64,000 bases of DNA from a virus (IMGVR_UViG_2920951204_000001:64001-128000), one strand, 5' to 3'. Positions 22,867-59,828 are shown, counted from the first letter of the stretch. Notes: generated by a model from the letters alone, not told the origin. Made by a program: numbers and translations.

Positions 22867-23076
22867 ATGAAAAGGATGAATTTTACATATAAAAAGACTA
22901 CAACTACTGCAATGAAAATAGCAGGAATTATAAATACAGACACAATGACAATTGATGTAGATGGTGAAGAAAAGAAACTTTCTACTCTTCTTTCAGATTT
23001 TGATGGTGCTGCCATTGAAATTAATGTGAAAGTTAAAGACGAAGAAGAACTTGATGAGCCTATAGAAGAAGAATAG
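22867..23076 (+). CDS. YonK-like small acidic protein
   Basis: G.I....MTI.....E..L..LL.DFDG..I.I pattern; synteny with the phosphoesterase gene as in SPbeta. Confidence 0.6.
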   Translation: MKRMNFTYKKTTTTAMKIAGIINTDTMTIDVDGEEKKLSTLLSDFDGAAIEINVKVKDEEELDEPIEEE

Positions 23077-23091
23077 AGAGTTGGTGAGTAA

Positions 23092-24324: not shown

Positions 24325-24403
24325 AAGAAAGGTCATCAGTCATCAAGAAAAGATAATCAAAATAACGAGAGTTTGATCACTGTTCAGGATGAAAAATTAT
24401 AAA

Positions 24404-24514
24404 TTATCTATTCGGTAATTTACGCCAATACTGAGACACATGTTCCCATCTATTAAGACGAAAGCGGTCATAGGCATTGACAAATACGATATAAGGATAA
24501 ACACACTTATTCAT
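24404..24514 (-). CDS. 36-aa peptide MNKCVYPYIVFVNAYDRFRLNRWEHVSQYWRKLPNR
   Basis: Own promoter TGGACT-N17-(TG)TATAAT (24619-24591); GAAAGGGG RBS; lies antisense within the late operon. Confidence 0.65.
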   Translation of the reverse strand: MNKCVYPYIVFVNAYDRFRLNRWEHVSQYWRKLPNR

Positions 24515-24804
24515 ATCTTCATCCCCTTTCTTCAGAATTAATTCTTAGGGAAGGCTGATGACCTAGAATGTGGAGAATCCCACGAATATTATTATACCAT
24601 TAAACAATATTGCAGTCCACCATTCGGCTTGGTTTGGCTAAGTAAGATACGCAGAGATATACTTAACTGCAATTATATAAAACAGAAACAATTTTGGTTA
24701 TATGAGGGAGTAGACTCTTTTGAGCTACTACCCTCTTTTTAGTTGATAAAATTATAAAATAAAAATGCTGAAAAAGGCAAAAAAAGATTAAAAGGAGATA
24801 TAAA

Positions 24805-25080
24805 ATGAATAAAGATATGTTATTAAAAGAAATTGCAAATAGAATTGAAGGTGCAACAAAGTCAGATATTAATGTCGTGTTAGACACTTTTGAAGACGTT
24901 ATTTTTGATACATTAAAAGCTGATTCAAGTGAAAAAGTTAAATTCGGAAAATTAGGTGCGTTCTCAGTGAAGGCAGTTCCTGCAAAAGACGGTATAAGTG
25001 CTATTAATGGTAAGCCTTGGCATACAGATGCCCATAATGAAATCAAGTTTACAATGAGTAAAACAAATAAGAATATCTAG
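24805..25080 (+). CDS. hup: HU family DNA-binding protein
   Basis: MNKDMLLKEIA...V.FGKLGAFSV...PAKDG...ING...IKF..SK. Confidence 0.9.
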   Translation: MNKDMLLKEIANRIEGATKSDINVVLDTFEDVIFDTLKADSSEKVKFGKLGAFSVKAVPAKDGISAINGKPWHTDAHNEIKFTMSKTNKNI

Positions 25081-25099
25081 TCTGAAAGGTCGTGAGATT

Positions 25100-25678
25100 T
25101 TGAAGAAAAAGAATAAATATGAAGATATTAAAATGATAGACCTTGATGACAAAGCTGACATTTCTAATATTTATATTGAACATTTATATAATACAGACAA
25201 AACTGTTGGATTTGTCGCTAGTAAAGAACTTGCAGAATATGTTTTACAAAATGTCATTAACCTTGATGAAACAAGTGTTAAGGAAATAAATTTTATTGAT
25301 CTATATGATATTAATGAATATCTTATATCTGTCAATGATGAAGGACACATTGTTGCTACTCCAATTGATGAACTTTATAACGTCTTTGATGATGTTGATA
25401 TTGTTTACATTGATATGGATGGAGATATTGAACAGGATGTTATTGATTATTGTGTAAATGAAAACAAAGAAGTAATTTTGTTTGGCGAAACAGATGATAA
25501 AGACTGTGAATGTTGTGATTATACAAATTGTAAACATACTTCTTCTACTACTAATTATTTTATAAATGATAAAGCTGTTAGTAAAGAAGAATACGAAGAT
25601 GCTATGGCTGAAATAGATTTAAAATATAAGGAATTTCATGATGAAATGAATAGATGGATAGATTTGTTAAGTTGGTAA
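25100..25678 (+). CDS. acidic hypothetical phage protein
   Basis: ORF track. Confidence 0.75.
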   Translation: MKKKNKYEDIKMIDLDDKADISNIYIEHLYNTDKTVGFVASKELAEYVLQNVINLDETSVKEINFIDLYDINEYLISVNDEGHIVATPIDELYNVFDDVDIVYIDMDGDIEQDVIDYCVNENKEVILFGETDDKDCECCDYTNCKHTSSTTNYFINDKAVSKEEYEDAMAEIDLKYKEFHDEMNRWIDLLSW

Positions 25679-25735
25679 GATGTTAAATCTTGAATTTATA
25701 GAGAGTGTGTAGTTTACTATGCACTCTTTTGTTTT

Positions 25736-25809
25736 GGGTATGTAGTTCAGTTGGTTAGAACAACCGGCTTTTAACCGGTAGATCAGGGGTTCGAGTCCCT
25801 TTATGCCCA
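25736..25809 (+). tRNA. tRNA-Lys(TTT)
   Basis: GGGTATG/TATGCCC acceptor; ACCGG-CTTTTAA-CCGGT; GGTTCGAGTCC. Confidence 0.9.
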
Positions 25810-25990
25810 TTGATTTGATGTTTCTGTGAATGGAAACAGAGAATATAAATATGTGCTCATAATTGGTGTCATAGCTGATTGTGGGATTTATGGAGAGATA
25901 GTTAGGAAGTCATGAGCCTGACGAAAGTGTAACCTCATTCGCACTTCTCTCCTATTTTTATGGAATGAGGGGAAATGAGGAAAATAAATT

Positions 25991-27301
25991 ATGGGAAAAG
26001 GAAAATCAACAGAGGAACGTATCAAATATTTTAAAGATATGTTTCCTATTAAATTTAATGACGAAATTACTTTATATTTATTAGATGAAAACGTTGATGT
26101 TGTCATTGATAATCAAAATTTACGCAATTATTATTTTAATGTGATTGATAATGATGGATATAAATATAGACAAAACATTCATCATATCCTGTCTTCAAGA
26201 AAAAATTATAAATGTCCAGCAAGATTTTTCGCCAACAATCCATATACGTATGAAAACATAAATAATTTCTTTAAAATTAATGATATTGATTTATTTATTA
26301 ATGGCATAAATCTTCCAATATCAGGATGTGCAAGAGAAAAATTTGATTTTGTAAAAAGTAATGGTGAAATAGTTAGTACCACATGGAATCAAATTCAACA
26401 TCATACATTCAGATACAAAAAGGATTATGATGAAGCAAAACAAAAGAAATTTGATGATACACATATGACAAAAGATAAGGCTATTCCTATTATATTAAAA
26501 AAATCAGAGGAATTAAAAAGACCTTTGTTACAAAGTGATTTTGAAGGTGTTGAAACAACGGATACTTCCATTGGAATTCGTGTAATTTGGCGTATATGGG
26601 GAACTTTTACAAATATGATTAAAGATTTAGGACTTCAAGAACATGATGGATATTTCAGACCTAATGATAAAAATTATCATTCACATGATGAAGTAATAAA
26701 TTCTGTAAAAAGTGTTTGTGATAAAGTAAAGACAGAAGGACGCGCTATTGTAATGTATCCAGATTTTAAAGGATATATTGATATTGAAATATCTACAATT
26801 AGAAGACATTGCGAATTAGATGGAACTACTCTTAACAAATTGGTAGAAAAATATGGTTGCAAGCTACAACAAGCAGGAAATGGACTTAACCATACATTTT
26901 CCGATGGCGAGCGAATTGTTTCAAAATATGAGTATGATTTTAGCAATTTTCTTAGAACACACGGATTAAACTTTAATGTAGATTATTTTAGAAATATTCC
27001 ATACAAATCTATAGATAGTTCTTACAGTGGTAAAATGAATTGCGATTATCTTATTATTTTCAATAATAAAAAAGTCTATATAGAACTTGCTGGCATACTT
27101 GGAAATAAAGGTCATCAAGAAGCTTATCGAAATAATACCCCAATAAAATCAAAATCAAAAGAATTGTATCGACAGAAATTATACCAAAAGCGTGACATTT
27201 TTGAACGAAATGGACTTGATTATTATATTTTATTAAAAGATGAAATGAATGAAGAAACATATAATAATATATTGAATAAATATTTGAAAGAAGTGACTTA
27301 G
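25991..27301 (+). CDS. putative free-standing homing endonuclease (PD-(D/E)XK-type C-terminus)
   Basis: C-terminal SKYE...CDYLI....VYIELAG; WGTFTNMIKDLG helix repeat; inserted after a tRNA with its own leader. Confidence 0.55.
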   Translation: MGKGKSTEERIKYFKDMFPIKFNDEITLYLLDENVDVVIDNQNLRNYYFNVIDNDGYKYRQNIHHILSSRKNYKCPARFFANNPYTYENINNFFKINDIDLFINGINLPISGCAREKFDFVKSNGEIVSTTWNQIQHHTFRYKKDYDEAKQKKFDDTHMTKDKAIPIILKKSEELKRPLLQSDFEGVETTDTSIGIRVIWRIWGTFTNMIKDLGLQEHDGYFRPNDKNYHSHDEVINSVKSVCDKVKTEGRAIVMYPDFKGYIDIEISTIRRHCELDGTTLNKLVEKYGCKLQQAGNGLNHTFSDGERIVSKYEYDFSNFLRTHGLNFNVDYFRNIPYKSIDSSYSGKMNCDYLIIFNNKKVYIELAGILGNKGHQEAYRNNTPIKSKSKELYRQKLYQKRDIFERNGLDYYILLKDEMNEETYNNILNKYLKEVT

Positions 27302-27338
27302 TATTTACTACTATCTCACTTTTTTTGTTTGAAAGGAA

Positions 27339-28388
27339 GTGAGAAAAATGTCAAGATTTACAGTCTATAATCATATTGTAACAGATGAAAAATATGCAAA
27401 AATTAATAAGGATAATATTGATTTGATGGATGATTGGATAGAATATTTGCAATCAATTGATAGAGCACCACAGACGCTCCACGCTTATCGGAACGACTTA
27501 AAGGTATTCTTTACATGGAATCTTGAGTTCAATGGGAACAAATTCTTTCCTGATTTAACTAAACGTGAAGTTGCAAAGTTTCAAAATCACGCATTAAATA
27601 CATGGGGATGGAGTTCAAATAGAATTAGACGAGTAAAGTCAACACTCTCTTCATTATCAAATTATATAAGAGATATTCTTGATGATGAACCTGAATTTGA
27701 AAACTACAAACCTATTATTAGAAAAATTGCAAATCCAGCCAAGGAAGTTGTAAGAGAAAAAACAATACTTTCTGATGAACAAGTAGAACTATTGTTAAAT
27801 ACACTTGTTGAAAGGAAAGAATATGAAGCAGCTTGTGCAGTAGCCGTACTTGCCTTTTCTGGAATGAGACATGCAGAGTTATTACAAATGAAAGTTGAAT
27901 ATTTCAATGACGATCATTTTGTCTATGATTCTATGTGGAAAACAGATAAGGTAAGAGCAAAAGGTTTCGGGAAAAATGGTAAGCAAATTAACAAATTTAT
28001 ATTATATAGTGCAAAACCATATTTGGATTTATGGTTAAAAGAACGTGAAAGACTAGGAATTGAAAGTGAATGGTTGTTTGTGACAGTTTCTGTTGATAAA
28101 GAAACAAAACAAAGAACATATCATCAGCGAAGAGATGTAAGCTCATGGATTCAAATGATGGAAGATATTTTAGGTGTTGACGCATATTGTCATATGTTTA
28201 GACATTATACATGTACACGCTTACATAGATTAAATTTGCCAGCTCACGTAATTCAAGAATTTTTCGCATGGTCTAGTGCAGAAATGCTCAGTATCTACAA
28301 CGACCTGACTGCCGAAGATGAATTTGGAAAATATTTCGATAGAGATGGTGTAAAAGAAGTTAAACAGGGTTCTTTAACAGACGCATAA
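27339..28388 (+). CDS. tyrosine recombinase/integrase
   Basis: SAM-like N-terminus; catalytic SGMR, K, HMFRH, W, Y. Confidence 0.9.
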   Translation: MRKMSRFTVYNHIVTDEKYAKINKDNIDLMDDWIEYLQSIDRAPQTLHAYRNDLKVFFTWNLEFNGNKFFPDLTKREVAKFQNHALNTWGWSSNRIRRVKSTLSSLSNYIRDILDDEPEFENYKPIIRKIANPAKEVVREKTILSDEQVELLLNTLVERKEYEAACAVAVLAFSGMRHAELLQMKVEYFNDDHFVYDSMWKTDKVRAKGFGKNGKQINKFILYSAKPYLDLWLKERERLGIESEWLFVTVSVDKETKQRTYHQRRDVSSWIQMMEDILGVDAYCHMFRHYTCTRLHRLNLPAHVIQEFFAWSSAEMLSIYNDLTAEDEFGKYFDRDGVKEVKQGSLTDA

Positions 28389-28712
28389 TTAATATCATTC
28401 TTGAAGACACCTCAAGCCCGATGAAGCTTTCGTCTAACATCATTCTTCTACTATCAAACAGAGAATATATAAGTAACACATCTTGACATTTGCTATTCAT
28501 GTAGCATTGTAAGTCCAATCTTCTATTCTATCGACATCTAGATTCTTTGGTTATTCTCATCCTTCAAAATGAGAAGATGTCCGTGATTGTCTACGTTAAT
28601 GAGAAACGATAATGAACAAAAATCTTTGGATTTTTACTTGGTGAGGTGCTTGCACCTAGCCTTGATTTTTATGTGGCTGGTGTCCGGTCTGGCAATCTGG
28701 AAAGACAGATAT

Positions 28713-28786
28713 GACTCTATAGAAGAATTGGTTAATTCGTCTGACTGTCTATCAGAAGATTATGGGTTCGAGTCTCGTTAGAGTCA
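28713..28786 (+). tRNA. tRNA-Asp(GTC), atypical
   Basis: GACTCTA/TAGAGTC acceptor; TCTGA-CTGTCTA-TCAGA; GGTTCGAGTC. Confidence 0.8.
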
Positions 28787-28883
28787 CTACTATGCGAGAA
28801 GTCCTGAAGATGAAAGTCTATTAGTGGGATGCATACAACTTTTAGATGTGAGTAGCTCATCACTACTCTCTCGCTTTATTAAA

Positions 28884-29200
28884 AATAAGACTGTCAAGCA
28901 CATCACTTTGACAGTCTTATTCCCAATTTGTTTTTCTAAGACCTTGGTGCAATTTACATGACGACAAACGCCGTACCATCATAGCGTTTATTATCCTTTT
29001 ATTCCTGATGGTGTCGTGTACACATTTTATGCCTTCACTGCAAATGGATTGATGTGAAATCCTATCTTACCCAAGGCAGTCTCACTTTAGCAGTTGGGAT
29101 CTGCAATACTATTATTGCCATCGCATTGACTTTTACTCAGAACGGGCATATTCAAAACGGCTTTTAACATAATCACCATTCCTTTCTGCCAATTATGGCA
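28884..29200 (-). ncRNA. antisense transcript with a 27-aa ORF (29087-29170) and a structured 3' region
   Basis: TTGACT-N17-TATAAT (29234-29206); RBS; bidirectional terminator AATAAGACTGTCAA/TTGACAGTCTTATT (28884-28921). Confidence 0.5.
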
Positions 29201-29246
29201 GATATATTATAGTCTGTTTGATTAGCGAAGTCAATGTGATGATTTT

Positions 29247-29319
29247 ACACCTTTAGCTTAATTGGTAGAGCAACGATCTCCAAAATCGTCAGGTCTATGT
29301 TCAAATCGTAGAAGGTGTG
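29247..29319 (+). tRNA. tRNA-Trp(CCA)
   Basis: ACACCTT/AAGGTGT acceptor; ACGAT-CTCCAAA-ATCGT; GTTCAAATC. Confidence 0.88.
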
Positions 29320-46828: not shown

Positions 46829-49387
46829 ATGGATAATAACGAATTTGGTTTGAGACTGATTGCTGAATTAGATGGAACTAAATCTAAACAGCAACTCAAT
46901 CAAGATATTGAAGCCTTAAAAAAGCAACTTGGGAATATTGAAATTCAAGCAAAACTCGGTAAAAATGTAGTTGCAAATTTAACAAAACAGTTAAATGCTA
47001 CACAAATTAGTTTACAGAATGTAGATATTGATAAAAATGCCATCAATAGAATGGTGTCTCAGATTAACGGTGCTTTAAATCAAATTAATATAAATATTGG
47101 TGGTAATCTGAACAGTGGTGGGAATGTTCAGAATGCACAAAGGACTGGTCAACAAATTGGACAACAGATTCAGAATGGTGTCAACTCTGTTATTCAAAAA
47201 GGTGGATTCAATAAAATATTTAAAGATTCTGGAAATGGGCTTAACAATGTTTCTAAAGATGCAGAAAAATATTTTCAAACATTATCAAACACTGTTTCGG
47301 TTCAAGAAAAACTTGGTCAAAATAATAATTTAACGAGTTTTATTGTTTCATTAAAAAATGCAGAAGGCGTAACTGAACAACTCAATTATAGGTTACAAAC
47401 ATTAAAAGATAATAATGGAAATATTATAGAACGTTTTTTTGAATATTCTGGTGGTTCAATTAATAACAATGGCGTTATCAAGCAAATTGATATGATAGAA
47501 TCTAAAGCCGATAGTTTGCAAAGAACACTTGATAAACTAAAAAGTGAATACTCAGATCCTAATACAACAAAACCTATTAAAGATTCTGATCATATATCGC
47601 AATTAGAAGCACAGTATCTAAAAGTACAATCTGCTATTGATGGAGTGAGAAATGCAGATAACTCTACACTTTCCTCAATGGTAAACAATGCAAACAATGA
47701 AATAAATGCTTTAGAAATAATGGGCAGAGAATTTCAAAATGCTGAAACAACAGCTACGCAATTTAAAAATATTGACATCTCTTCAGGCATTGAACAGGCT
47801 TCAAATAGATTTGATAAATTGAAAGCTAATTCGAAAGACATTAAAGAGATGTCCACAACCTTAAAAGATCTTGAAACTTCTTTTGCCGATGTTAATGATA
47901 AAGCTTCTCTAGATAAATTTATTAATCAGCTTCGAGTCGGAGAAAGTCAGCTTAGTTCTATAAAAGCAGAACAAAGACAATTTGTTTCTGAAACTTCACG
48001 TTTAGCCACATCCGAAGCATGGAAAAAATGGGCAGATAATAATACTAAAGCATTAAAAAAATATGGTGATCAAATAGATAATCTTATTTCCAAAATGAAA
48101 AATTTAGATGATCCAATGACAAAAGCTGAGAAAAACAATCTTATTTCACAGTGGAATCAGATGAAAAATAATATCAGAACCGATGGATTACTTGGTATGT
48201 CGTCTGTGGATAAAATAAAAAATGCTTGGGAAAAATTTGGTGGTTGGTCTATAGCTACTGGCAGCTTAATGAAAGGCGTTAATGAAATAAGAAAGGCTAT
48301 TTCAGAATTAAAAGATGTTGACGATATTCTTACGGAAATTAGCAAAACTTCTAACAGAACAAAAGAAGAGTTAAAATCTTTAGGGAATGAATCTTACGAT
48401 AGAGCAAGTAAATTTGGTCGTACTGCTCCTGATTGGTTAACCGGTGTTCAGGAAATGAATCGAAGTGGGTTTTATGGTGAACAAGGCAATGCGTTAGCAG
48501 ATACATCTACTCTTGCTCAGTCTGCTGGCGATATGACCGCCGAAGTTGCCAATAATTGGATTTTAGCAACTAATGCTGCTTATAAATATCAAGCACAGAC
48601 TGAAAAATTAAATGCTGTATTGGATGGAACCAATGAGATCACCAATCGGAACAGCGTAAATATGACAGACATTGCAAATGCGATGACAACGGTTGGTTCA
48701 AATGCTGCAAATGCAGGCGTTCAAATTAATGAATTATCAGCTCTTATTGGTACTGCTGTTGCAACTACTAAAAAAGAAGGTAATGAAGTTGGTACTGCTT
48801 ATAAGTCTATTTTTGTTAATTTACAGAATACTTCTTCTAGTAAAATTCAAGCAACCTTAGAAAAAGCAGGAACTTCAATGACTGAAATTGTGAATGGAGC
48901 AGAACAATTACGTTCTCCTATTGCAATTCTTAAAGATTTGGCAAAAACCTATAATGAGTTAGACCAAAAAGATCCATTAAGATCAGAGATAACGAGGAAT
49001 ATTGGTGGTAAACATTATGCTAACATTTTAGGTAGCACTTTAGATGGGTGGAATCAATATGAAAAGATGCTTAAAGATTATTCTGAAGGTTCGGGATCAG
49101 CTATGGAGGAAGCTGAGAAGTCAGCCAATAACTGGACAGGATCGCTTAATAAACTGTCTAATAGTTGGACGAAATTAGTATCTAACTTTGCCGATTCTGA
49201 CGGAATTACAAAAGGAATTCAAGCTTTAGCGTCTTTGACAGATGGAGCAAGTTCTTTTGTCAAAGTAATAGATTCCATTAGCAAAAGCGTTAGTAATTTA
49301 TTTGGAATTTTAGGAGGAGAGGGTTCTTCTCTTGGTGGAACTATCGGTATTTTTACTGGTTTAATACAAAGTTTAACAGGTCATGGT
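46829..49387 (+). CDS. tail tape measure protein, exon 1 (853 codons)
   Basis: TP901-type TMP core (D..LTEISKTS, G..VG.A.KSIF.NL, GSAMEE); ends ...LTGHG at the predicted 5' splice site. Confidence 0.85.
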
Positions 49388-49922
49388 GAAAATGTACTGC
49401 GCCCTTTGTTATAAGATTGAAAATAATGTCTTTCAATTAACGTAGCGAATGCAGACCTTTTGTGTACTTTAAAACACAATAAATCTCGAATAATGCTGGG
49501 AATCCCTAAAGCCAACAACCACAATTATCAAGGAAACGAAGATAATACGGTGTTAATAGCAAAACAAATGTTGGATGTCATACCCATGAAAATTGGTTAA
49601 AATGACATAGTATGTTAAGTCGTACAGTATGAGTGCTGAAATGTACTCCTCTACTACAATGGGTGGTCTATAGGTAGGTTTAATAACCGAAAGCAGTCGT
49701 TGGCTAAGTCGTATATACGATAGTTGTCTTGTAGTGACGCACAAGAATGTCAACGGTTCAGAGACTGGCAAGAGCAGGCAGATTTACAGACTAATGTTCT
49801 TCTGCTTGGATATACAGTCCCGATTTGCGAAAGCAAACGTAATGCGTTAAATAATATTATGCTGACTTCTGAAAACAGATAGTATTATTTTAAAATTAAA
49901 TTAAAAGAAAGGAATTTTAAAT

Positions 49923-50072
49923 ATGAAAAAATTTATTTATACATTAAAACAAATATTACCATTAACTTATTATTCAAAGTATAAAGTCCAGAATGGAGTT
50001 AAAGAACTCGCAATCTGGACTCAGTGGTTTGGTAAACCATTTAATATTAAGCGATATACTTTAGCCGACTAA
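49923..50072 (+). CDS. small hypothetical protein (49 aa, MKKFIYTLKQILPLTYYS...W.QWFG); intron cargo
   Basis: Hand-translated; GAAAGGA RBS. Confidence 0.6.
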   Translation: MKKFIYTLKQILPLTYYSKYKVQNGVKELAIWTQWFGKPFNIKRYTLAD

Positions 50073-50200
50073 TGGAATTTAGTCCCATTGCATTTTGGGC
50101 ATGGTGGCATTGTATCGGTATCATCATCTAATACAATCACCTGTCCACAATTGTCACAAGTATATTGACCTTTACCAGGCTTTTCTCCTGTGTTTGGCAT
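50069..50200 (-). CDS. small zinc-ribbon protein (43 aa, MPNTGEKPGKGQYTCDNCG...PPCPKC); intron cargo
   Basis: Hand-translated; AAAGGAGG RBS; two CxxC pairs. Confidence 0.75.
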   Translation of the reverse strand: MPNTGEKPGKGQYTCDNCGQVIVLDDDTDTMPPCPKCNGTKFH

Positions 50201-50366
50201 AAGTCCATCCTCCTTTCTTAATCGTACATAATGTTATGGTAATATTATAGCACTATGTTTGTAAGATTAATAGAACAAATCTATGGTTTATAAATATTTT
50301 AAATTTTAGTATTGACAATTAACTTACGACATTGTATAATCAAACTTGCAAACGGGAGGTATATAG

Positions 50367-50555
50367 ATGTCAGATGTCAGAGAGGTCTATGTTACTGCTG
50401 AAGTTGCTAAAATTTTAGATATTACTCCTGCTTATTTAATACGATTGGCAAAAGGTTTGAATTTATCAAATAGCCAATTTAGAGAAGCAGGAAAACGCAA
50501 TTATCTTTTTAGTAAAGAATCAGTAGCAATAATCAGAGCTAATTTAAAAAAATAA
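50367..50555 (+). CDS. small MerR-like HTH DNA-binding protein; intron cargo
   Basis: Y.TAEVAKILDI....L; upstream TTGACA-N17-TATAAT at 50312-50340. Confidence 0.7.
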   Translation: MSDVREVYVTAEVAKILDITPAYLIRLAKGLNLSNSQFREAGKRNYLFSKESVAIIRANLKK

Positions 50556-50673
50556 AACAAACACTCATCGCTCCGACCAAAGAACAAATGAGTGTTTTAC
50601 ATATGAGATTTCTCTCAACTCTTATTCTACTATACTTTCAAAATTTTATCAAATGAATTTTGGAGGAATTAAT

Positions 50674-51420
50674 ATGAATGAAGTATTATCAGTTATTCAA
50701 GAGACTGAGATTCTTGGAAAGAAAGTGAATTTGTATCGCAGTATTGAAGAACCATTATTTGAAGCGAATGAAGTTGCAAAATGGTTAGATGTAAAAAATG
50801 TAAGTCAAATGATAAAACAAGCCGATATTGACGATTCTGAAAAGGCTATATTTTTAAAATATACCCTTGGTGGAAATCAAAATTCTTTGTTTGTTTCAGA
50901 AGATGCGATGTATGAAATATTAATGCGTTCTCGAAAGAAAGAAGCAAAGCCTTTTAGAAAAGAAATAAAGAAATATCTTAAGTCTATTCGTCTTACTGGT
51001 GCTGCCATTCCTAAAGGACGTGAGCAAGAAATGGTTCAGAAATATTTCCCATCATTCTCGAAGGAAGTTCAAACTGAAATGATTAATGACTTAATTAAAC
51101 AGAATAACAAATTAAAAGAATTCTATGACGATTTAATAAATACCGAAGGTCTTATGAGTATTAATACCATGGCAAAAGAACTTGCAATTGGAGAATATAC
51201 ATTGTTTGCTTATCTCAGAGGTAAGAAAGTATTTTTCTATGATAAGGATAAGGTAAATGTTCCTTATGAACGTTTTAGAAAAGAAGGAAAATTTGCCGTA
51301 AAAGAAACTCCTTGTCACGATGGTAATATTCGTTCTGTGACATTTGCAACAAAAAAGGGATTAGACTATGTTAGAAAACTTCTTCGCAAAGATGGTTACT
51401 ACACTGCGGAGGTTGTATAA
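50674..51420 (+). CDS. phage antirepressor (Bro-N plus KilA-C/ANT); intron cargo
   Basis: PLFEA.EVA.WL...SRK.EAK.F; AKEL.IGE..LF.YLR...T..T.KG. Confidence 0.85.
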   Translation: MNEVLSVIQETEILGKKVNLYRSIEEPLFEANEVAKWLDVKNVSQMIKQADIDDSEKAIFLKYTLGGNQNSLFVSEDAMYEILMRSRKKEAKPFRKEIKKYLKSIRLTGAAIPKGREQEMVQKYFPSFSKEVQTEMINDLIKQNNKLKEFYDDLINTEGLMSINTMAKELAIGEYTLFAYLRGKKVFFYDKDKVNVPYERFRKEGKFAVKETPCHDGNIRSVTFATKKGLDYVRKLLRKDGYYTAEVV

Positions 51421-51594
51421 ATGGAATACATAAGACTTATAGCATTAAAAGTAGATGATTTCTCTTCTTCTATTTTCTTTGAAAACAATTATAAAATTGA
51501 TGACAAGGAAATTTTAGATGTAGATAAAAAGTGTTTAGAAAATGATGGGTGTATTTGTGTTGTTTTAAAAATGACGAGTAATATAAAAATCTAA
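51421..51594 (+). CDS. small hypothetical protein (57 aa); intron cargo
   Basis: Hand-translated; GGAGG RBS; starts right after the antirepressor stop. Confidence 0.55.
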   Translation: MEYIRLIALKVDDFSSSIFFENNYKIDDKEILDVDKKCLENDGCICVVLKMTSNIKI

Positions 51595-51844
51595 TAGTGC
51601 ATAATAAAAGAGAATGGTTTAAATAATCATTCTCTTTTAGAATTAGCAATGTAAGATTCAAAAAAACAAAGCCCACAGAATTAAATCTATGGACTTTCGT
51701 TCTCCCCCTAAATAATTATATAATACTTTGCAAAAATGCGATACAATTTTTCGTCGTATTTTTTCGACTTTTATTGACTTAAAAAATTTAAAAGTTTTTC
51801 AAAAAAGCATAGATTTTTTCTCATAATTGTGTATAATATAAGTA

Positions 51845-52035
51845 AGAAATTAGAAATGATTTCACTTATCTTCTCATTTCTTCGTAAGAAGATGTTTGTC
51901 GTAGGATAACGAAACGTTAATTAAAAAAATATCCAATTGGAAGACTGGTTCGTAGAGCCACGAACAGGGTAAACTAAAAAAAGCTCAACGAGAAGATAAC
52001 ATCTACTCCTACTCTTGCTAGTAGGAGTATTTTAT
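51845..52035 (+). ncRNA. type III antitoxin RNA array (tenpI-like) with terminator
   Basis: 52-nt periodic units (GAAGA at 51888, 51940, 51992), each an H-type pseudoknot; hairpin TACTCCTAC/GTAGGAGTA plus U-tract before the toxin gene. Confidence 0.7.
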
Positions 52036-52050
52036 TATACGGAGGAGAAT

Positions 52051-52506
52051 ATGTTATTTACACGTTTGTCAGAAAAGTTTTATAATGATTATCCATCAGA
52101 TCAATATCCAGAAATGATGTTAAAAGAAAATCGTCCATATACTCAAGTTATTACAGAGGTGAATGGATTAAAGTTTGCAGTTCCATTGCGTTCAGATATC
52201 TCACATCGCACAGATGTATTATGGACAGATAAACAAGCAAAGCATGGACTGGATTTCACAAAAGCAGTATTGATTCTTGATGATGAATATATTTCTGATA
52301 AACGTGCATATATAAGAGATAAGGAATATCAACATCTTCTTGGAAAAGAAAGACGTGTTAAAGAAAAGATGGAGAAATGTATTGGCAATTACAAAAAAGC
52401 AAAAGAAAATATTGAAGAAGAACATAATGCTGAGTATTGTGGTTTTTCTACACTTCAATATTTTGAGGAATACATATATCCAGATACAAACAAAGACACC
52501 AACTAA
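52051..52506 (+). CDS. tenpN: type III toxin-antitoxin endoribonuclease toxin (TenpN-like); intron cargo
   Basis: FY.DY...E...K..RPY, FAVPLRS.I.H, GLDFTKAV, FSTLQYF; preceded by pseudoknot repeats and a terminator. Confidence 0.8.
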   Translation: MLFTRLSEKFYNDYPSDQYPEMMLKENRPYTQVITEVNGLKFAVPLRSDISHRTDVLWTDKQAKHGLDFTKAVLILDDEYISDKRAYIRDKEYQHLLGKERRVKEKMEKCIGNYKKAKENIEEEHNAEYCGFSTLQYFEEYIYPDTNKDTN

Positions 52507-52706
52507 GGTGTCTTTTTATATTACAGGGTTAATCTCCTGCTCTTTTACTATTCTCATTACTTCTCTATCCAAGTCCATTCTGGTATAGTCTGAACATGTG
52601 TTTTATTATTCTTTCCTATTTCATAAAATTGTAGAATATACGTTCTAATAGAAATATGTAATATTCTGTCGTATAATATTTGGTATAAATTACCAAAGGA
52701 GGTACT

Positions 52707-53504
52707 ATGGATAAAGATTTAGATATTTCATTATTGGAATTCAAATACTTAGACCTAGTTGCTTGTTATACACATAATACTCAAACAAACAAGGGAATGA
52801 CCGCAATCGGTCGTTCAAAAATAATAGATGGTCTAATCCAACTTGAAGAAAATATACATCGAATATTAAGACAGTTAAATGCTTATGATGCTTCTTCTAT
52901 TCTAATTGCAGAAACAAATTGGATGAAACGAAACCATTTTGGTAAATATATGCCAAAGAAAGGTAATAAAAAGAAAGTTGCTTTCGGACAGGTATGCACA
53001 ATTGATTATGGGAAAAGTTATAAGGGTGAAATCGGGTATGTTCATCCTGGTCTTTGTATAGGAAAAAAGGATGATAAATATTTAATTGTACCAATGACAA
53101 CAGGTAAGAACTGGAGGGATACTTGTTATCATCCTACGCTTAATCCAAATATGACAAAGGAACATCGTCAATGTTGTACCTCCGAAGGATTTGAAAAAGA
53201 TGGTGTATTATTGATAAATGATTCAAAGTTTATGTCTGGTGGACGTATTTTAGAATTACATGAAGTAATACCTTCTGAAATTTTAGAAGAGATACAATTG
53301 CAGTTATTGTATATTATGTTTCCAGATATTTATAGAATTTTCAATAAAGACAAAAATAAAATTACTCGTCTTGAAAATTCAGCAAGTGATAGAGAACGAC
53401 AAATTGCAAATTTAAAACTCAAAAATGAAAAATTGTCAAACAGAATTCGTGACCTAGAGTGCGAAATTAATAACATTACATCTTCTACGGAAAATCACGA
53501 ATAA
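52707..53504 (+). CDS. PemK/MazF-fold protein with C-terminal coiled-coil; intron cargo
   Basis: GQVCTIDYG....GEIG..HPGL.I......LIVPMTT. Confidence 0.65.
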   Translation: MDKDLDISLLEFKYLDLVACYTHNTQTNKGMTAIGRSKIIDGLIQLEENIHRILRQLNAYDASSILIAETNWMKRNHFGKYMPKKGNKKKVAFGQVCTIDYGKSYKGEIGYVHPGLCIGKKDDKYLIVPMTTGKNWRDTCYHPTLNPNMTKEHRQCCTSEGFEKDGVLLINDSKFMSGGRILELHEVIPSEILEEIQLQLLYIMFPDIYRIFNKDKNKITRLENSASDRERQIANLKLKNEKLSNRIRDLECEINNITSSTENHE

Positions 53505-53544
53505 AACTGTTGACAAAAGCATATGCTTTACATATAATACTAAG

Positions 53545-53693
53545 TAACGGAACAGGAAGTTCCACGGAACAGTATTATATTTTTACAGAGTCCTGCTTAT
53601 AAATTGCCGTGCCACTGGGTTAATGGCAGAATTTAAGTGTGAGGCTCACGGAGTTAAAGAGCACTATCATTATGGGATGATAATGCTCTTTTT
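53545..53693 (+). ncRNA. putative sRNA downstream of PemK-like gene 1
   Basis: TTGACA-N17-TATAAT (53510-53538); no ORF; hairpins; strong terminator at 53656-53693. Confidence 0.55.
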
Positions 53694-53828
53694 CAATATA
53701 AAAGATTTAGGAGAGTATTACTACTCTCCTTTCCTATTCACCTATAAACATATGTTCTGATAGTATTCTGTCGATTATTGGTATATAACGGTAATATTAA
53801 ATACTAATGCTTGGGAGGATATTAGTTT

Positions 53829-54433
53829 TTGAGAGAATTAAAAGATGAAAAATTACGATATAAATTGGATATAATTTATAAAAACATAAAAAAATTAAAA
53901 AGATTAGATATTGATAATTATTATTGTGCCAACTTATTAGATTGGTTTAATGAAATTATTTTAAAGAATATTGCAATATTTAAGAGCAAAAATGATATTA
54001 ATCAAATGGATCAAGAACTTTTTAAAAAAGAAAGACAATATGTTTATTGGATTGATTTCGGTAGAAATATAGGAAGTGAATTTAGAGATTTACATTTTGC
54101 GGTTGTAATATTTGAATCAAAATATACAGCTCTAGTGATTCCATTAACATCTAAAAAAGATCATGATCCAACATGGATTGAAGAAAATAAAGAAGCGATT
54201 GTTGATTTAGGAATCATAAATGGCTTTCCTGATGAAACAAAAGAATGTTATGCCTGTACTTTTATGATACAATCTGTTAGTAAAAACGCCTTTCACGATA
54301 TGGAGATAACCAAAAAGGATATTTTGATATTAAACTTTCTAATAATCAAATGAGAAAAATATGTAATAATTTATCTCAAATTGCATATAATAGTATATCA
54401 GAAAACATTGTTGACACAAACGAATTGATGTGA
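53829..54433 (+). pseudogene. PemK/MazF-fold protein with an apparent 1-nt frameshift at A5 (54282-54286); intron cargo
   Basis: VYWIDFG.NIGSEF...HFAVVI.....LVIPLTSKK; adding one A restores QSVSKKRL...LSNNQMRKI to a stop at 54433. Confidence 0.65.
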
Positions 54434-54445
54434 TATAGTTAAATA

Positions 54446-54573
54446 GTCAATAAGGACAGTGAATTGATATGTTAGGATTACCATTTTCCTAACGCTATTT
54501 GGCATTGAGCCAGTGAATTATATAAAAAGATATTTCTTTTATGAGCAACTATAAACATATAGTTGCTCTTTTT
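54446..54573 (+). ncRNA. putative sRNA downstream of PemK-like gene 2
   Basis: TTGACA-N17-TATAGT (54411-54439); CAGTGAATT repeated 54 nt apart; terminator GAGCAACTAT/ATAGTTGCTC plus U-tract. Confidence 0.55.
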
Positions 54574-54634
54574 TGTCTAAAAAAAGAGTAGTAATTTCTC
54601 ACTACTCTTCTATTCTATAGTCGGAACATTTCTT

Positions 54635-55042
54635 CTACCATTTTGCACCGCAATTTTTACAATGCATAGTCTTTCTAATGTCAGAACTAAATAATCCAAA
54701 TAATGCACCTCCAACTGCTTTCTTTCCTAAAGAAATTTTTTCTATATTTGATGAACCACAAGTTGGACATTTAGGTATATTATCCTCTTTCTGTTTTTTA
54801 AATTGCATCATACGTGATTCAAACTCAATAATATCATTTCGTTTTAAGTCGTCCATTGCTTTTAAAAATACTTTGTTATGGTTGGTTGCGTCTCCTAGAA
54901 TATTAATTTCTTTTCCTGTCAAAGCAGAATCAATTAATCCTTCCGAATGACAATTTGGGCATATTTGTGTGTCAGCATTAAAAAAAGGTAAAAACCCTGT
55001 ACGGTCAGTATTTTCATAACAATTTTTACAAAATTTTGGCAT
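54635..55042 (-). CDS. double zinc-ribbon protein with a glycine-rich hydrophobic segment; intron cargo
   Basis: Start MPKFCKNC behind GGAGG; CPNC, CPTCGS, GGALFGLFS, CKNCG. Confidence 0.75.
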   Translation of the reverse strand: MPKFCKNCYENTDRTGFLPFFNADTQICPNCHSEGLIDSALTGKEINILGDATNHNKVFLKAMDDLKRNDIIEFESRMMQFKKQKEDNIPKCPTCGSSNIEKISLGKKAVGGALFGLFSSDIRKTMHCKNCGAKW

Positions 55043-55154
55043 AATCAAAAACCTCCAATTTAACTTTAATATATTTGTTGTTATATTATTTTTTATTCTA
55101 TCTATTATTATAACATTTATCAGAAGTAAATGATAGTCTATTTCTATCTCTAAG

Positions 55155-58100
55155 GCAGTACGTTGGGATAAAGAAAATGGACTTACCACATGGATAGATT
55201 CATTTAAGAATTTAAATATAGAAAATATAAAAGAATTAAAGAATTTGTTTTCCGACAGTAGGTTATTAACCTCTGACGACAATGAGTTAGATGCTCTTTT
55301 CGACACAAAAGGGATTACTAAATATCGTCAAAACATAAAAGATTTTCTTACTGATACTAAATACGGAACAAAAGACTTATCAACTTTCAAACAGTATCTT
55401 AAAGATAATAACATAGCCTTTTCGGGTTTTTCGAAAGTAGTTAACGCCGGTAAAACAGCAATAAAATCATTTGGTGCTTCTCTCGCTTCTATGGCTGCTA
55501 TGTGGGCAATTATGGAAGTTGTTTCTTGGGCAGCTACAGCAATTGATAATTACGTTAATCGTGTTAAATATGCAAAAGAAGCCCTTGATGACTTCTCTTC
55601 TTCTGTTAAAGACCAAGAGAGTTCATTATCTTCAAATAATCAATGGATTCAACAAAATGGAGATAGGTATGCTAAATTGGCTAAAGGTGTTAATGAATAC
55701 GGTCATAATATTTCATTAACTAGCGATGAATTTAGTGAATATAGAAATATTACTAAAGAAATTGCCAATATGTTTCCTGAAATGGTATCGGGTTATAACG
55801 ACCAAAATGACGCTATTATTAAGAATAAAGGTAGCGTTGAAGCATTAACTAAGGCTTATGAAGATCAAAAGAAGGCTTATTATGCTACGATTAGAGGTAA
55901 ATCAGACGAAACCTTTAGTGACTTTAAAACAGCTACAGAAGACGATTATAAAAAAATAACAGAATTAAGAAACATGATGAAAAATGGTTTTCGCACACCG
56001 GGTTATTCAAGTCCTGCTGTTGGCAATGCTCCTTCTGTATGGGACGTATTAGATAATGATACTGTTTATGCTTTACAAGAGGAACAAAGGCAATTAAAGT
56101 CTGAAGGAAAAGTTGGCATGTATACTGATTTTTCTCAATTAACTCCGCAACTTCAACAGAAAATTCGTGATGTATTTACTAATCTAAATAACACAATTGA
56201 TGCCGAATCAGAAAAAGTGCGTCCAATTTTAACTGCGTATTTATATAGTGATACATCTGGTTATGACAAGTTAGATGACGATGCTAAAAATGCTGTTCAA
56301 TCTTTTATTCAAAATGTAGACAATACATTCTTTGAAAGTTTTGATTCTGATATTGATATGGAAACGTGGATAACAGAAAATGTTATTAATCCATTAAAAG
56401 ATGGAATTAACAGTGAAGATTTAGCAGTTCGTATACAAACATTATTTTCTTTAAATAAGAAAGATTATGATAGTTATGCCGATTATGTTAAAGCAGTTTT
56501 AGATTTAATTAATTCTTTACAAAATCAAACTGGCAAAGATGGGAAAAAGATTTATTCTAAAACCCAAATTGATAATTTAAAAACAAAATTTGGTGTAGGT
56601 GATGTTGATTCTGAGGGTAATGTTTCAGGAAACAAACTTATAGAACAAACTCAAAAGAAGTATTCTCAAATCAAAGGGGCTAATGAATATATTAAAACCT
56701 TAAATGAAGATGAGTTACGTTATGTTAATAATGTTAAAGGTGAAGTAAAAACACTTGAAGATTTAAAAAATAAAGTTAAATCTTTAAATGCGAAAAACCA
56801 AGATACTTCTGATTCCAAAAAGAAATCTTTTAAACAAGCATGGAAAGACCTCGATAATGTAGATAGCAAGTCTGATATGAAGAATACCAAGAAAGACCTT
56901 CTTGCCCTTGCACAAGCTGGTAAACTTACAGAAAAAACTTTTAAAAGGACTAAAGGCACTAAGACTTGGTTATCACAAATGGGAATTGATGCGACTACTG
57001 CGGTTAAAAAAATCAATAAATTGATTGATGCTTCTAAACAACTTGCAACATTAAAATCTAGTGTAAAGTCTTTACAAACTGCTCTTAATGAAAAGAAAGA
57101 GAATGGTGTTGTTGGTGCAGATACTCTTAGTAGTATGGAATCAGAATTTAGTAATCTAAAATCTTGGGACGATTATAGAAATAAACTTGGTTCTACTACT
57201 TCTACTATTGAACAATGCCGTGAAGCACAAAATAAATTAGCAACAGAGTATATTAATAGTAATGATTTTTTATCACAGCTTGTCGATACAAATGGAAAAG
57301 TTAAAGAATCAACTAAACAATATTATATCGAACAGCTTAAAGAGTTGGGTGTAAAAAATGCTATTGAGGTTGTAGAGGCTCAAATAAAAAAACAAAAACT
57401 TGAATTGCTTATAGCTGATGCTAAGTTAGACACATCTTTTAAAACGGAAATTAATAATTTAATAAATGAGGGGATTCAACTTGGCTATAATGAAAATGCT
57501 ATAAAAAAATATGTTCTCAAAAAGGCTTTGGCTAATAAAAATTCATTAAAAACATCAGATAGTATTAAAAACCTTAAAGCTTTGGCTAAACAGTTGGGTA
57601 TTACTGGGGAAGCCATGTTGTCGTTTGTAACGTTAGAGGGTTTAAAAAAAACGTATGAAAATATTACGAAATCTGGTAATGCAGACACTCAACACGCTTT
57701 GCCTTCTCTTCAAAAACAAATAAGTGCTGAAGAAAAAAATTTAAAAAAACTTATAAAGAAAGATGTTCGCATTACAGATGCAGATATAGGCGATGCTGGT
57801 AAATATGGTGGGGTTAATATTGGAAACGGAAAAGGCTCTGGTTCTTCTTCCTCTTCTTCTAACAAGGTATTTGACTGGATTGAAGTTCGTTTAAAACGAT
57901 TGGAAAATAAAGTTAAGAAAACGGTTGACAATATAAACGATTATGCTTCTAAGAAAACTAAAAACGGATTATTTAAACAGGCGAAAAAACAGTATGATGA
58001 CTTATTACACGGATATGAAATTGCAGCAAAGAAATACAAGAAAAAACTCGACAGGATTAATCTTTCTTCTGACTTAAAAAAGAAGATTCAGAGCGGTGAT

Positions 58101-59828
58101 TATTCTATCCAGACAATTAAAGAGTCTGCTAAAAAGGGAAAAAGTAAAAAGTCACAAAAATCTGTATTGGACGCAATTGACAGTTATCAGGAGTATTGGG
58201 ACAAGTATACTGGTGCAAGAGATAATATTATTGAAACTAAGAATAATAAACGTGAGCTTATCAAAAAACAATTAGAGGACGATATTTCTGACTTAGAAGA
58301 TGATTTAGACCTCTTGCAATATGAGGCAGATAAAACACAGAGTCGAATTGACAAAAACGAGACAAAAGGCTTTATTGCAACCAAGAGTGATTATAAGGAA
58401 GAAATCTCTAATTCTAAGAAACAGATTAACAAATGGAATCAGGAGAAAAAGGCATATCAGGCATATCTTAAAGATAATAAGATTGCTTCTTCTTCAGATG
58501 AATATCAGGATATTAAGCAGAAAATTCGTGATATTGATAAAAATATATCCGATGCTGAGAAAAACCAGTTAGAATGGAATAAGTCAATATCTGAATTACC
58601 ATATCAAAGTCTCGAAAAGTTTAAAAATATTCTTGACGCTATTTCTAGTCGCTATGAAAAGATAATCTCATTCTGGGAGTCACAGGGACATACTAAAAAC
58701 GAATCGCAAATCACAAAACAGATTTCCATCGGTCTTAATGGGTTATCTCAGCTTAAAAAAGAACGTGATGAAAAATGGAGTCAAATTAACAAAACGTTAT
58801 CAGACAAAGGATTGAATTCTTCTCAGAAGAAGCAGTTTAAGGCTTTGTACGAAGGAATGCGTGAAGGTACTATTACTGTTGACCAATTTTATAAGAGTAT
58901 CAGCAAACTTGGTATCTCTAAAAAGACTTTTGATTCATGGGATGGACTTCGGGATAAACTTCAAGAAGTTGATGGTCTTGACGGAGATATTCTTGATAAA
59001 CAGGCAGAAATCGAAAACAATTATGACGATTTGTTGACACCTTGGATTAATTCAATTCAAGATTTAATTGACAAAATTAATGACCTTAATGATGCTCAGT
59101 CTAAAGCCGTTGAACTTGAAAAACTTCAACAGGCATTACAGAGTGTTAAACAAAATAAAAAGAATTTAATCTATCACGAGGATTATGCTTTTAATTATGA
59201 GGCTGATAATAGTGCAGTTAAGGAAGCACAAGACAATCTTGACGACTATTATAATCAGGAACAACTCGATACGTTAAACAAGATTCTTGATTGGCTAAAT
59301 GACCACAAAGATGATGTAAACTTCTTTGACGAAAATGGCAAACCTCTGTATAAGACCGTGGATGAAGCAGTTAGAGCTGTAACTAAGGGAATGACTGAGG
59401 GAATGTCAGATAGTGTCAAGAAAATGTTTGACAGTCTTACTTTTTCTATTGATAAGAATGGTAAGATTACAGCCAGTGTTCCTAAATATGTAGCCGGTAC
59501 AAAATATGCCAAGGGTGGAATGTCTATAGTTGGTGAAAAAGGTGCTGAGTTAAGATTACTTAATTCTGGTGACCAGATATTACCACATGATGTTACAGAT
59601 AACTTGTGGAAATTTGGTGTTAATCCAACAAAAATGATATTAGACAATATTCAAATACCTGATATGAGCAACTTGGTTAAAAATACTGGTGGTGAAGTGG
59701 TTAATAATAATGTTTCTATTGGAACAGTTAGTATTCCACATATCAATGACTTATCAAAAGCTAATGATGTATTTAACGCGTTGGCTGGTCTTAGTTCATA
59801 TGCTCATCAACAAGCAAATAAAAGATAA
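55155..59828 (+). CDS. tail tape measure protein, exon 2 (spliced product ~2410 aa)
   Basis: Open frame from GCA GTA CGT TGG; long coiled-coil, FDWIE motif, C-terminal Y..GT......VGEKG.EL; no RBS of its own. Confidence 0.85.
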   Translation, partial: AVRWDKENGLTTWIDSFKNLNIENIKELKNLFSDSRLLTSDDNELDALFDTKGITKYRQNIKDFLTDTKYGTKDLSTFKQYLKDNNIAFSGFSKVVNAGKTAIKSFGASLASMAAMWAIMEVVSWAATAIDNYVNRVKYAKEALDDFSSSVKDQESSLSSNNQWIQQNGDRYAKLAKGVNEYGHNISLTSDEFSEYRNITKEIANMFPEMVSGYNDQNDAIIKNKGSVEALTKAYEDQKKAYYATIRGKSDETFSDFKTATEDDYKKITELRNMMKNGFRTPGYSSPAVGNAPSVWDVLDNDTVYALQEEQRQLKSEGKVGMYTDFSQLTPQLQQKIRDVFTNLNNTIDAESEKVRPILTAYLYSDTSGYDKLDDDAKNAVQSFIQNVDNTFFESFDSDIDMETWITENVINPLKDGINSEDLAVRIQTLFSLNKKDYDSYADYVKAVLDLINSLQNQTGKDGKKIYSKTQIDNLKTKFGVGDVDSEGNVSGNKLIEQTQKKYSQIKGANEYIKTLNEDELRYVNNVKGEVKTLEDLKNKVKSLNAKNQDTSDSKKKSFKQAWKDLDNVDSKSDMKNTKKDLLALAQAGKLTEKTFKRTKGTKTWLSQMGIDATTAVKKINKLIDASKQLATLKSSVKSLQTALNEKKENGVVGADTLSSMESEFSNLKSWDDYRNKLGSTTSTIEQCREAQNKLATEYINSNDFLSQLVDTNGKVKESTKQYYIEQLKELGVKNAIEVVEAQIKKQKLELLIADAKLDTSFKTEINNLINEGIQLGYNENAIKKYVLKKALANKNSLKTSDSIKNLKALAKQLGITGEAMLSFVTLEGLKKTYENITKSGNADTQHALPSLQKQISAEEKNLKKLIKKDVRITDADIGDAGKYGGVNIGNGKGSGSSSSSSNKVFDWIEVRLKRLENKVKKTVDNINDYASKKTKNGLFKQAKKQYDDLLHGYEIAAKKYKKKLDRINLSSDLKKKIQSGDYSIQTIKESAKKGKSKKSQKSVLDAIDSYQEYWDKYTGARDNIIETKNNKRELIKKQLEDDISDLEDDLDLLQYEADKTQSRIDKNETKGFIATKSDYKEEISNSKKQINKWNQEKKAYQAYLKDNKIASSSDEYQDIKQKIRDIDKNISDAEKNQLEWNKSISELPYQSLEKFKNILDAISSRYEKIISFWESQGHTKNESQITKQISIGLNGLSQLKKERDEKWSQINKTLSDKGLNSSQKKQFKALYEGMREGTITVDQFYKSISKLGISKKTFDSWDGLRDKLQEVDGLDGDILDKQAEIENNYDDLLTPWINSIQDLIDKINDLNDAQSKAVELEKLQQALQSVKQNKKNLIYHEDYAFNYEADNSAVKEAQDNLDDYYNQEQLDTLNKILDWLNDHKDDVNFFDENGKPLYKTVDEAVRAVTKGMTEGMSDSVKKMFDSLTFSIDKNGKITASVPKYVAGTKYAKGGMSIVGEKGAELRLLNSGDQILPHDVTDNLWKFGVNPTKMILDNIQIPDMSNLVKNTGGEVVNNNVSIGTVSIPHINDLSKANDVFNALAGLSSYAHQQANKR

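Follow-up and report, generated by a model that had tools for sequence, protein, structure and literature searches.

The window analysed here, a stretch of 64,000 nucleotides (nt) of viral DNA (IMGVR_UViG_2920951204_000001:64001-128000), is an SPbeta-like prophage in a host genome of 2.93 Mb from a large family of gut Firmicutes, with its nearest named proteins in Lachnospiraceae. Its yomI-like tape-measure gene is broken by an insert of 5.74 kb that, judged by sequence comparison, is best read as a group I intron in which a variable cargo stands between the catalytic core and a remote 3' splice site. We consider it moderately probable that the terminators of this cargo serve the host polymerase in the lysogen, that a phage polymerase reads through them in lytic growth and that the intron is spliced in cis. 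A reading made earlier from the letters of the DNA (the sequence-only reading) had posed a dilemma, in which terminators inside the intron would force either read-through or the assembly of two RNA halves by trans-splicing. The terms of that dilemma hold, as two halves of one frame do flank a 5.2 kb terminator-bearing cargo lying between core and 3' site, but nothing specific supports trans-splicing. The evidence favours read-through, with a phage polymerase as the most likely means of passing the cargo terminators to make the tail.

A split tape-measure gene and a ribozyme-like core

The tape-measure gene consists of two pieces, an open reading frame (ORF) of 861 amino acids (aa) at 46829-49414 and an open frame at 55137-59828 (the coordinates of all features are collected in Table 1). 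In uninterrupted relatives both form a single frame of 2200-2900 aa (the G200 locus and 120 long proteins), and the tail of the first piece (..GTIGIFTGLIQSL..) and the head of the second (..DKENGLTTWID..) align to adjacent internal sequence of uninterrupted proteins (P0005, P0031). If unspliced, the exon 1 frame stops at TAA 49412-49414, which sits 0-3 nt past the predicted 5' splice site in the usual pattern for phage introns. The first ATG, GTG or TTG in the frame of exon 2 comes 30 codons in (34-152 codons in seven other copies of the element), and no Shine-Dalgarno sequence precedes it in any of the eight distinct copies. Because exon 2 lacks a usable start of its own and the pieces form one frame, they must be joined. 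That they never are, and instead yield two separate tape-measure proteins beside an RNA that is a ribozyme-like relic or has some other role, appears very unlikely. The exon 1 stop codon is conserved in all copies, Rfam calls no intron, and the second gene of a distant phage, L006, starts with ATG near the equivalent point, but the start-free opening of exon 2 in eight copies, the homology of its head to internal sequence of uninterrupted proteins and the strong structural selection on the ribozyme all speak against it.

The RNA at the 5' end of the insert has the build of a group I ribozyme. Its helices follow the canonical order, P1-P2-P3-P4-P5-P6-P7-P3'-P8-P7'-P9, with a P3/P7 pseudoknot. 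The structure comes from RNAalifold on 15 copies (138 pairs) and was curated by hand, with P3 added as a pseudoknot and P4 added; the counts given here are from the same alignment. In the curated structure 99.6% of cells are paired, compared with 33-48% in slid controls, and 31 of the 138 pairs show double changes, compared with 14.9 +/- 2.4 in shuffles (0 of 500 reach the observed value) and 1-3 when the structure is slid. Compensatory changes occur in two of the eight pairs of P1, in one pair each of P3, P4 and P5, and in six of the 16 pairs of the P9.1 stem, whose loop is identical in the 15 copies. The minimum free energy (MFE) of the core has a z-score of -2.8. Two U.G wobbles within P1, U49409.G49446 and U49412.G49442, are invariant in the 15 copies and are the candidate 5' splice sites. 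The junctions resemble both the group I consensus (GGUUCAGAGACUG ahead of P7, GAUAUACAGUCC ahead of P7') and the Rfam consensus printed for an intron match in the relative L004, and J6/7-P7 (UCAGAGACU) and J8/7-P7' (GAUAUA.AGUC), read at 49756-67 and 49809-20, are nearly invariant in the alignment, as is P9 (49824-37) with its GNRA cap. Two other pairings were discarded. Exon bases 49396-400 with 49693-97, drawn as P4 in the MFE fold, were rejected because six copies break the pairing, and P4 was reassigned to 49504-07/49692-95, where it shows G-C to A-U compensation. The motif AUAGUCU at 55132-38 was rejected as the 3' strand of P7, as a complete P7/P8/P9 is present in the 5' module and the motif is not conserved elsewhere.

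A pattern scan of metagenomes and of IMG/VR with the 5' 480 nt gives 26 copies of the element in phage contigs of about 100-175 kb, 25 of them beyond the window. Over these 480 nt the copies are 82-97% identical in nucleotides, against only 24-52% amino-acid identity in the flanking tape-measure exons, and every copy found occupies the same point of the tape-measure gene, with exon frames intact wherever they are readable. The ribozyme is not found in GenBank phages, in 400 sampled genomes of the host family or in 33 other species of the genus. Removal of the island from the DNA on induction, or a prophage left defective by insertion into its tail gene, seems far-fetched. The cargo does hold an HTH_17 gene, with an excisionase-like fold, but profile scans find no recombinase there (window proteins were compared with Pfam and PADLOC and some of them with NCBIfam and PHROGs; the ORFs of other copies were viewed without profiles), no direct repeats occur at the borders of the insert, and the same interruption recurs in the 26 phage contigs.

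The 26 nt or so of exon 1 directly 5' of P1 (49378-49404, GGTCATGGTGAAAATGTACTGCGCCC) are almost invariant in the 26 copies, and upstream of 49378 exon 1 drifts like ordinary coding sequence (e.g. AGT/TCA serine codons). This flank may serve as a homing site, mark a co-conversion tract or act as a partner in RNA pairing; RNAalifold proposes a pairing of 49399-402 with 49844-47, which shows no covariation. No intron-less allele with the conserved flank was found in IMG/VR, where eight of eight matches carry the intron, or in species-representative genomes, and the flank motifs are absent from the equivalent place in all 120 uninterrupted tape-measure proteins.

Further interruptions are seen in related tape-measure genes. 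In the closest relative, L004, exon 1 holds a further intron of about 750 nt (L004:8797-9556, equivalent to window position 49010), which the window lacks. It is a group I match in Rfam (48.4 bits, E 8e-10), and tape-measure genes of this phage group are thus intron-prone. The exon 1 homologue of L035 has two additional breaks (L035:6644-7841, 1.2 kb, and L035:8338-9115, 0.8 kb), and its tape-measure gene may hold three introns. In L006 (MT835469, reverse complement, 880-8701), a 176-kb gut phage, 7.8 kb of genes break the tape-measure homologue at a comparable point, and a ribozyme was not detected there. The intron reading would account for the two-fragment tape-measure calls in these 100-175-kb gut phages.

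The predicted remote 3' splice site

The candidate terminal G of the intron is G55158 (GCAG^UAC, where ^ marks a possible junction) or G55155. Every copy reads ..G^GC(A/U)G^UAC at the 3' exon border and so places a G before the 3' exon; the intron end at 55154 given by the sequence-only reading is 1-4 nt off these sites. The best P1/P10 geometry is obtained with a 5' splice after U49409 and a 3' splice after G55158, which would rebuild an in-frame Leu codon and give the candidate junction ..CCUUUGU^UACGUUGGG... Pairing U49412 with G55155 is a candidate alternative that would give a Ser codon, likewise in frame.

The invariant loop of P9.1 (ACUUCUGA) is exactly complementary to an invariant motif of the tail (UCAGAAGU). 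UCAGAAG(U/C) stands 35-45 nt ahead of the 3' exon in 12 of 12 loci with a located 3' end, and the remainder of the tail varies. The resulting duplex of 8 bp has a predicted energy of -11.0 kcal/mol, matched by only 15 of 5000 shuffled tails. We infer from this complementarity that the loop-tail helix may act as a tether bringing the distant 3' splice site to the core. The long-range helix on which the sequence-only reading built its split intron is therefore real and conserved, but an intron spliced in cis would need it just as much if its 3' splice site were remote. Of the ten tails displayed, six (e.g. L036, L044 and L046) contain a second UAUCAGAA about 14 nt ahead of the 3' splice site, which the tail of the window lacks.

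Terminators, promoters and the probable polymerase of the late operon

The four plus-strand terminators that had been placed inside the insert are all stable hairpins with U-rich tails, at 52004-52035 (-13.9 kcal/mol, z -5.3), 52492-52518 (-12.3 kcal/mol, z about -5), 53656-53693 (-17.5 kcal/mol, z about -5) and 54543-54573 (-14.8 kcal/mol, z about -5, then UUUUUU). A consensus scan recovers three of the four and adds 53709-30 and 54584-609, and the 46-59 kb region holds 11 terminator-like sites compared with 4.4 +/- 2.2 in shuffles. In the predicted terminators a G+C-containing hairpin is directly followed by a U run. The sigma-A promoters noted within the insert also stand up to scrutiny: perfect TTGACA-17-TATAAT promoters occur at 50312 and 53510 and 11/12 matches at 52057 and 54411, and neither count is reached in 300 shuffles.

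The distribution of such signals along the late genes is uneven. Strong sense sigma-A promoters (at least 11/12) number four in the 5.2-kb cargo; the 19.9 kb upstream have none and the 8.8 kb downstream a single one, a pattern consistent with transcription of the late operon by an enzyme that does not use sigma-A. This operon (29.5-49.4 kb) itself contains six hairpin-plus-U sites of -10.4 to -19.9 kcal/mol, hairpins at 44810 and 45842 among them, five of the six just past a listed gene end and one 43 nt ahead of the tape-measure start. As these are equally strong, terminators are not peculiar to the intron, and the late-gene polymerase already passes such sites before reaching it. Sense terminators are present in eight of the nine distinct cargos, giving every copy the same read-through need, and transcription of the tail genes beyond exon 2 depends on the same polymerase getting across the intron.

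The late-gene polymerase reading through the terminators is plausibly, by analogy with SPbeta, the YonO homologue of the prophage. By tblastn, the 15012-17528 product matches SPBc2 yonO (E 4e-15, residues 87-483) and a Goe12 gene annotated 'yonO: DNA-directed RNA polymerase', and it is 49% identical to genes of Enterocloster phages. SPbeta YonO transcribes 37 late genes as one operon with little pausing and lacks the flap domain, which is used in hairpin termination (Forrest et al. 2017, PMC5467207). The proposal that a YonO-like enzyme reads through thus gains the homologue and a late operon free of strong sigma-A promoters with six hairpins. Antitermination is a common phage solution, and the late operon needs a way past its own six hairpins, so that host RNA polymerase with a phage antiterminator, in place of a YonO-type enzyme, could also make the cis precursor. 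We regard this as quite unlikely, as the 19.9 kb of late operon hold no strong sense sigma-A promoter, a YonO homologue is encoded, and no antiterminator turned up, although no search was aimed at one. In Enterocloster phages CB457P1/P2 and CB473P1-3 the matches to the YonO-type gene fall into 2-3 pieces over about 3.5 kb, compared with an expected 2.5 kb, and this gene is probably also interrupted by introns.

One cargo unit bears directly on how the precursor might be cut. Two tandem Rfam 6A matches (51890-51941, 27.9 bits, and 51942-51993, 60.3 bits, with a gathering score of 41.2) precede a gene whose product scores 154 bits on NCBIfam NF047358, the TenpIN toxin (cut-off 90), which bears out the proposed repeat substrate of a type III endoribonuclease. 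Toxin, tandem RNA repeats and the terminator between them are all present, and the unit is TenpIN. All type III operons are defined in part by a terminator between the repeats and the toxin gene, and non-identical tenpI repeats are common (PMC12283969). TenpIN occurs in only two of the nine distinct cargos, those of the window and L035, which means that the suggested link between the toxin and tail synthesis cannot hold in general.

Trans-splicing would have the precursor severed in the cargo, or its halves made separately, and the two RNAs rejoined through the P9.1 loop-tail helix before splicing; the break might be caused by a terminator, by cleavage of the tenpI repeats by TenpN or by RNase III digestion of sense/antisense duplexes. 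In favour of this route, trans-splicing is possible in vitro for group I introns divided in a peripheral loop (T4 td) and occurs naturally in some mitochondria. The 8-bp tether (-11 kcal/mol), conserved in all copies, could bring the halves back together, the window and L035 have tenpI repeats between core and tail, and most cargos carry sense terminators. We nevertheless find it unlikely. Past 54573 the sense promoters reach only 9/12 matches, with none of at least 11/12, and an antisense gene occupies the stretch after the last terminator in every copy. A stop within the cargo would also leave the tail genes after exon 2 untranscribed, and TenpN severing cannot be the general route when TenpIN is missing from seven of the nine cargos. 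The two halves, moreover, share one strand and follow each other in the right order, as expected of an intron spliced in cis. Under read-through, it is possible that TenpN cuts the intron at the tenpI repeats with the halves held by the tether.

Read-through followed by cis splicing may be pictured as follows. The intron would have three parts, a 480-nt core at the 5' end, a short 3' tail with the terminal G, and an open slot downstream of P9.1 for exchangeable cargo. In the lysogen, host sigma-A RNA polymerase would make the cargo as separate short units (the antirepressor-like operon, TenpIN, the PemK-like gene and small RNAs), and the internal terminators would be the ordinary ends of these units and would also prevent host transcription from running on into exon 2 and the genes for tail and lysis. 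During the lytic cycle, the YonO-type polymerase would make the late operon as one RNA, ignoring the hairpins of structural genes and cargo alike, as the analogy with SPbeta YonO suggests. The emerging 3' tail would then pair with the P9.1 loop and bring the terminal G to the core, and splicing in cis would produce a single tape-measure reading frame of 2.4 kaa.

Several points weigh against this picture. Splicing itself is deduced from structure, conservation and the split frame. Rfam RF00028 (Intron_gpI) gives no match at E<=1 (7 kb) or E<=10 (541 bases), which is not a failure of the tool because the L004 intron on the same material scores 48.4 bits; the intron premise of the sequence-only reading thus draws no support from Rfam, and it is the comparative structure with its covarying pairs that upholds it. 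P3, P4 and P5 are short (3-4 bp), with only 3 bp in P3 and 4 bp in P4 as drawn, and copies whose guide position is an A form only a weak P10. Since neither strand of the loop-tail helix varies, the helix offers no covariation, and its UCAGAAG motif also stands in the leader of the antisense gene, where it could serve leader or promoter instead, so that the helix can be called only a putative tether. Terminator bypass is a putative property of YonO-type enzymes, SPbeta YonO included, and is extended to this homologue by analogy. Finally, no homing endonuclease or transposase to account for the spread of the element was seen in the cargo, nor any recombinase.

Cargo modules, their variation and known systems

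Table 1. Predicted features of the interrupted tape-measure locus and of the YonO-type gene (window coordinates)
Feature	Position	Strand	Basis or remarks
YonO-type single-chain RNA polymerase homologue, 838 aa	15012..17528	+	tblastn; phrog_8308
Tape-measure exon 1	46829..49409	+	ORF; homologous to N-terminal part of uninterrupted 2200-2900 aa tape-measure proteins
P1 helix	49405..49449	+	49405-12 paired with 49442-49; extension hairpin 49415-38
Putative group I ribozyme core, P1 to P9.1	49410..49895	+	curated comparative structure, 15 copies
Core helices P3, P4	P3 49495-97/49772-74; P4 49504-07/49692-95	+	curated structure
Core helices P6, P7	P6 49696-704/49749-57; P7 49763-67/49815-19	+	curated structure
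Core helices P8, P9	P8 49775-82/49801-08; P9 49824-37 with GAAA loop	+	curated structure
P9.1 hairpin	49849..49890	+	11-nt loop 49865-49875 (ACUUCUGAAAA)
Variable cargo	~49896-55094	both	downstream of P9.1, ahead of 3' tail
Cargo unit 1	50312..51594	+	perfect sigma-A promoter 50312-40, HTH_17 gene, BRO-N/KilAC gene, 57-aa ORF
Cargo unit 1 genes	HTH_17 50367-555; BRO-N/KilAC antirepressor-like 50653-51420	+	HTH_17 has an excisionase-like fold
TenpIN type III toxin-antitoxin unit	51890..52518	+	repeats, attenuator terminator, tenpN, terminator
TenpIN parts	repeats 51890-51993; terminator 52004-35; tenpN 52051-52506; terminator 52492-518	+	
265-aa cargo gene	52707..53504	+	common to window and L036
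Candidate small-RNA unit, ~150 nt	53510..53693	+	perfect sigma-A promoter, then terminator 53656-93
PemK/MazF-like cargo gene	53829..54353	+	Pfam PF02452 E 1e-5; phrog_1936
Promoter-terminator unit	54411..54573	+	11/12 promoter with TG; strongest terminator, 54543-73, last sense one before exon 2
Antisense double zinc-ribbon gene, 135 aa	54635..55042	-	adjoins 3' tail in every copy examined
Intron 3' tail	55117..55158	+	UCAGAAGU at 55120-27 complementary to P9.1 loop
Tape-measure exon 2	55159..59828	+	lacks own start codon; head DKENGL aligns to internal sequence of uninterrupted relatives

The length of the insert ranges from 1.87 kb in L035, which holds TenpIN and the antisense gene only, to the 5.74 kb of the window, and the cargo is shuffled among copies, with TenpIN, PemK-like genes and BRO/KilAC antirepressor-like genes in different combinations; some cargo genes resemble DUF262 or DUF3800, judged by eye only. 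Neither an IS200/605 or IS607 transposase nor TnpB was found among the window cargo proteins by profiles, and none is visible among the cargo ORFs of the other copies. In the window, the 265-aa gene has no family match in profile searches (Pfam, PADLOC, NCBIfam, PHROGs). The units at 53510-53693 and 54411-54573, of about 130-150 nt and devoid of ORFs, stand on either side of the PemK-like gene and are possibly small RNAs acting as RNA antitoxins. Window 53743-53814 is conserved also beside the PemK-like gene of L004.

The antisense zinc-ribbon protein belongs to a conserved family with 24 invariant columns and a central motif DPIEYQLKMSQFKANLKQQE. Pfam, PADLOC, NCBIfam and PHROGs assign it to no family, and its AlphaFold2 (AF2) model (pLDDT 72) gives no fold match, which leaves no basis for regarding it as a homing endonuclease or maturase. 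The leader of its gene would include ACUUCUGA and so repeat the sequence of the P9.1 loop. Elsewhere in the prophage, four tRNA genes lie within window 19516-29319 (at 19516, 25736, 28713 and 29247).

If read-through and cis splicing hold true, a self-splicing intron would give defence and toxin genes a portable docking bay within a gene essential for the virion; the host polymerase would express the cargo in the lysogen, and splicing would remove the whole bay from the late transcript in lytic growth. Among bacterial group I introns described to date, this architecture would apparently be the largest and the richest in genes. It would also offer a test bed for the maximum distance of a 3' splice site from its ribozyme, for the handling of intrinsic terminators by a two-barrel single-chain polymerase and for the splicing of intron RNA after cutting by a resident RNase. 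Were splicing in trans the truth, the element would be the first case of a group I intron that splices in trans naturally in a phage or bacterium, and the state of the defence genes in the cargo would govern how much tail length protein is made.

The architecture is closest to IStrons and the T4 nrdD intron. IStrons such as CdISt1 and BcISt1 measure 0.48-2.58 kb and occur in Clostridia including Lachnospiraceae (Tourasse et al. 2014, PMC4227781). As in the element described here, a group I ribozyme at the 5' end is followed downstream of the P9 subdomains by coding cargo on the kilobase scale, the remote 3' splice site is returned by pairing across the cargo, and coding content varies between copies. 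The differences are equally clear. IStron cargo consists of IS200/605 or IS607 transposases, whereas that of the present element comprises promoter/terminator-bounded defence and toxin modules with an antisense zinc-ribbon gene, in a larger insert (1.9-5.7 kb). IStrons are of the IA2 type with P7.1/P7.2, which are absent here, where only 7 nt (49768-74) separate P7 and P8. They occur at many genomic sites, in contrast to copies that all lie at one site of one phage gene, and their bridge is an inverted-repeat stem rather than a loop-tail helix. The T4 nrdD (sunY) intron reportedly has its core wholly 5' of a coding insert with a remote 3' splice site, and its 3'-terminal sequences are said to pair with the core and so activate it. 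The 5' position of the catalytic core and the remoteness of the 3' splice site are thus shared, but the T4 insert is one homing-endonuclease ORF of less than 1 kb without internal promoters or terminators, whereas the insert described here holds as many as eight genes, which lie on both strands and form four or more transcription units.

Other likenesses concern the cargo, the separation of the halves and the host phage. As in morons and the defence hotspots of temperate phages, self-contained promoter-gene-terminator units expressed from the prophage vary at a fixed position; the hotspot here lies in an intron within an essential structural gene, however, and not between genes. Natural trans-spliced group I introns are found in organelle cox1 genes of placozoans, lycophytes and fungi. 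They share a large separation of core and 3' exon and complementary segments able to hold two RNAs, but their halves lie at separate loci or strands, whereas here they are collinear on one strand in one operon. SPbeta itself has a YonO-type enzyme and a late structural operon that contains a yomI-like tape-measure gene and lacks sigma-A promoters, yet its yomI is uninterrupted.

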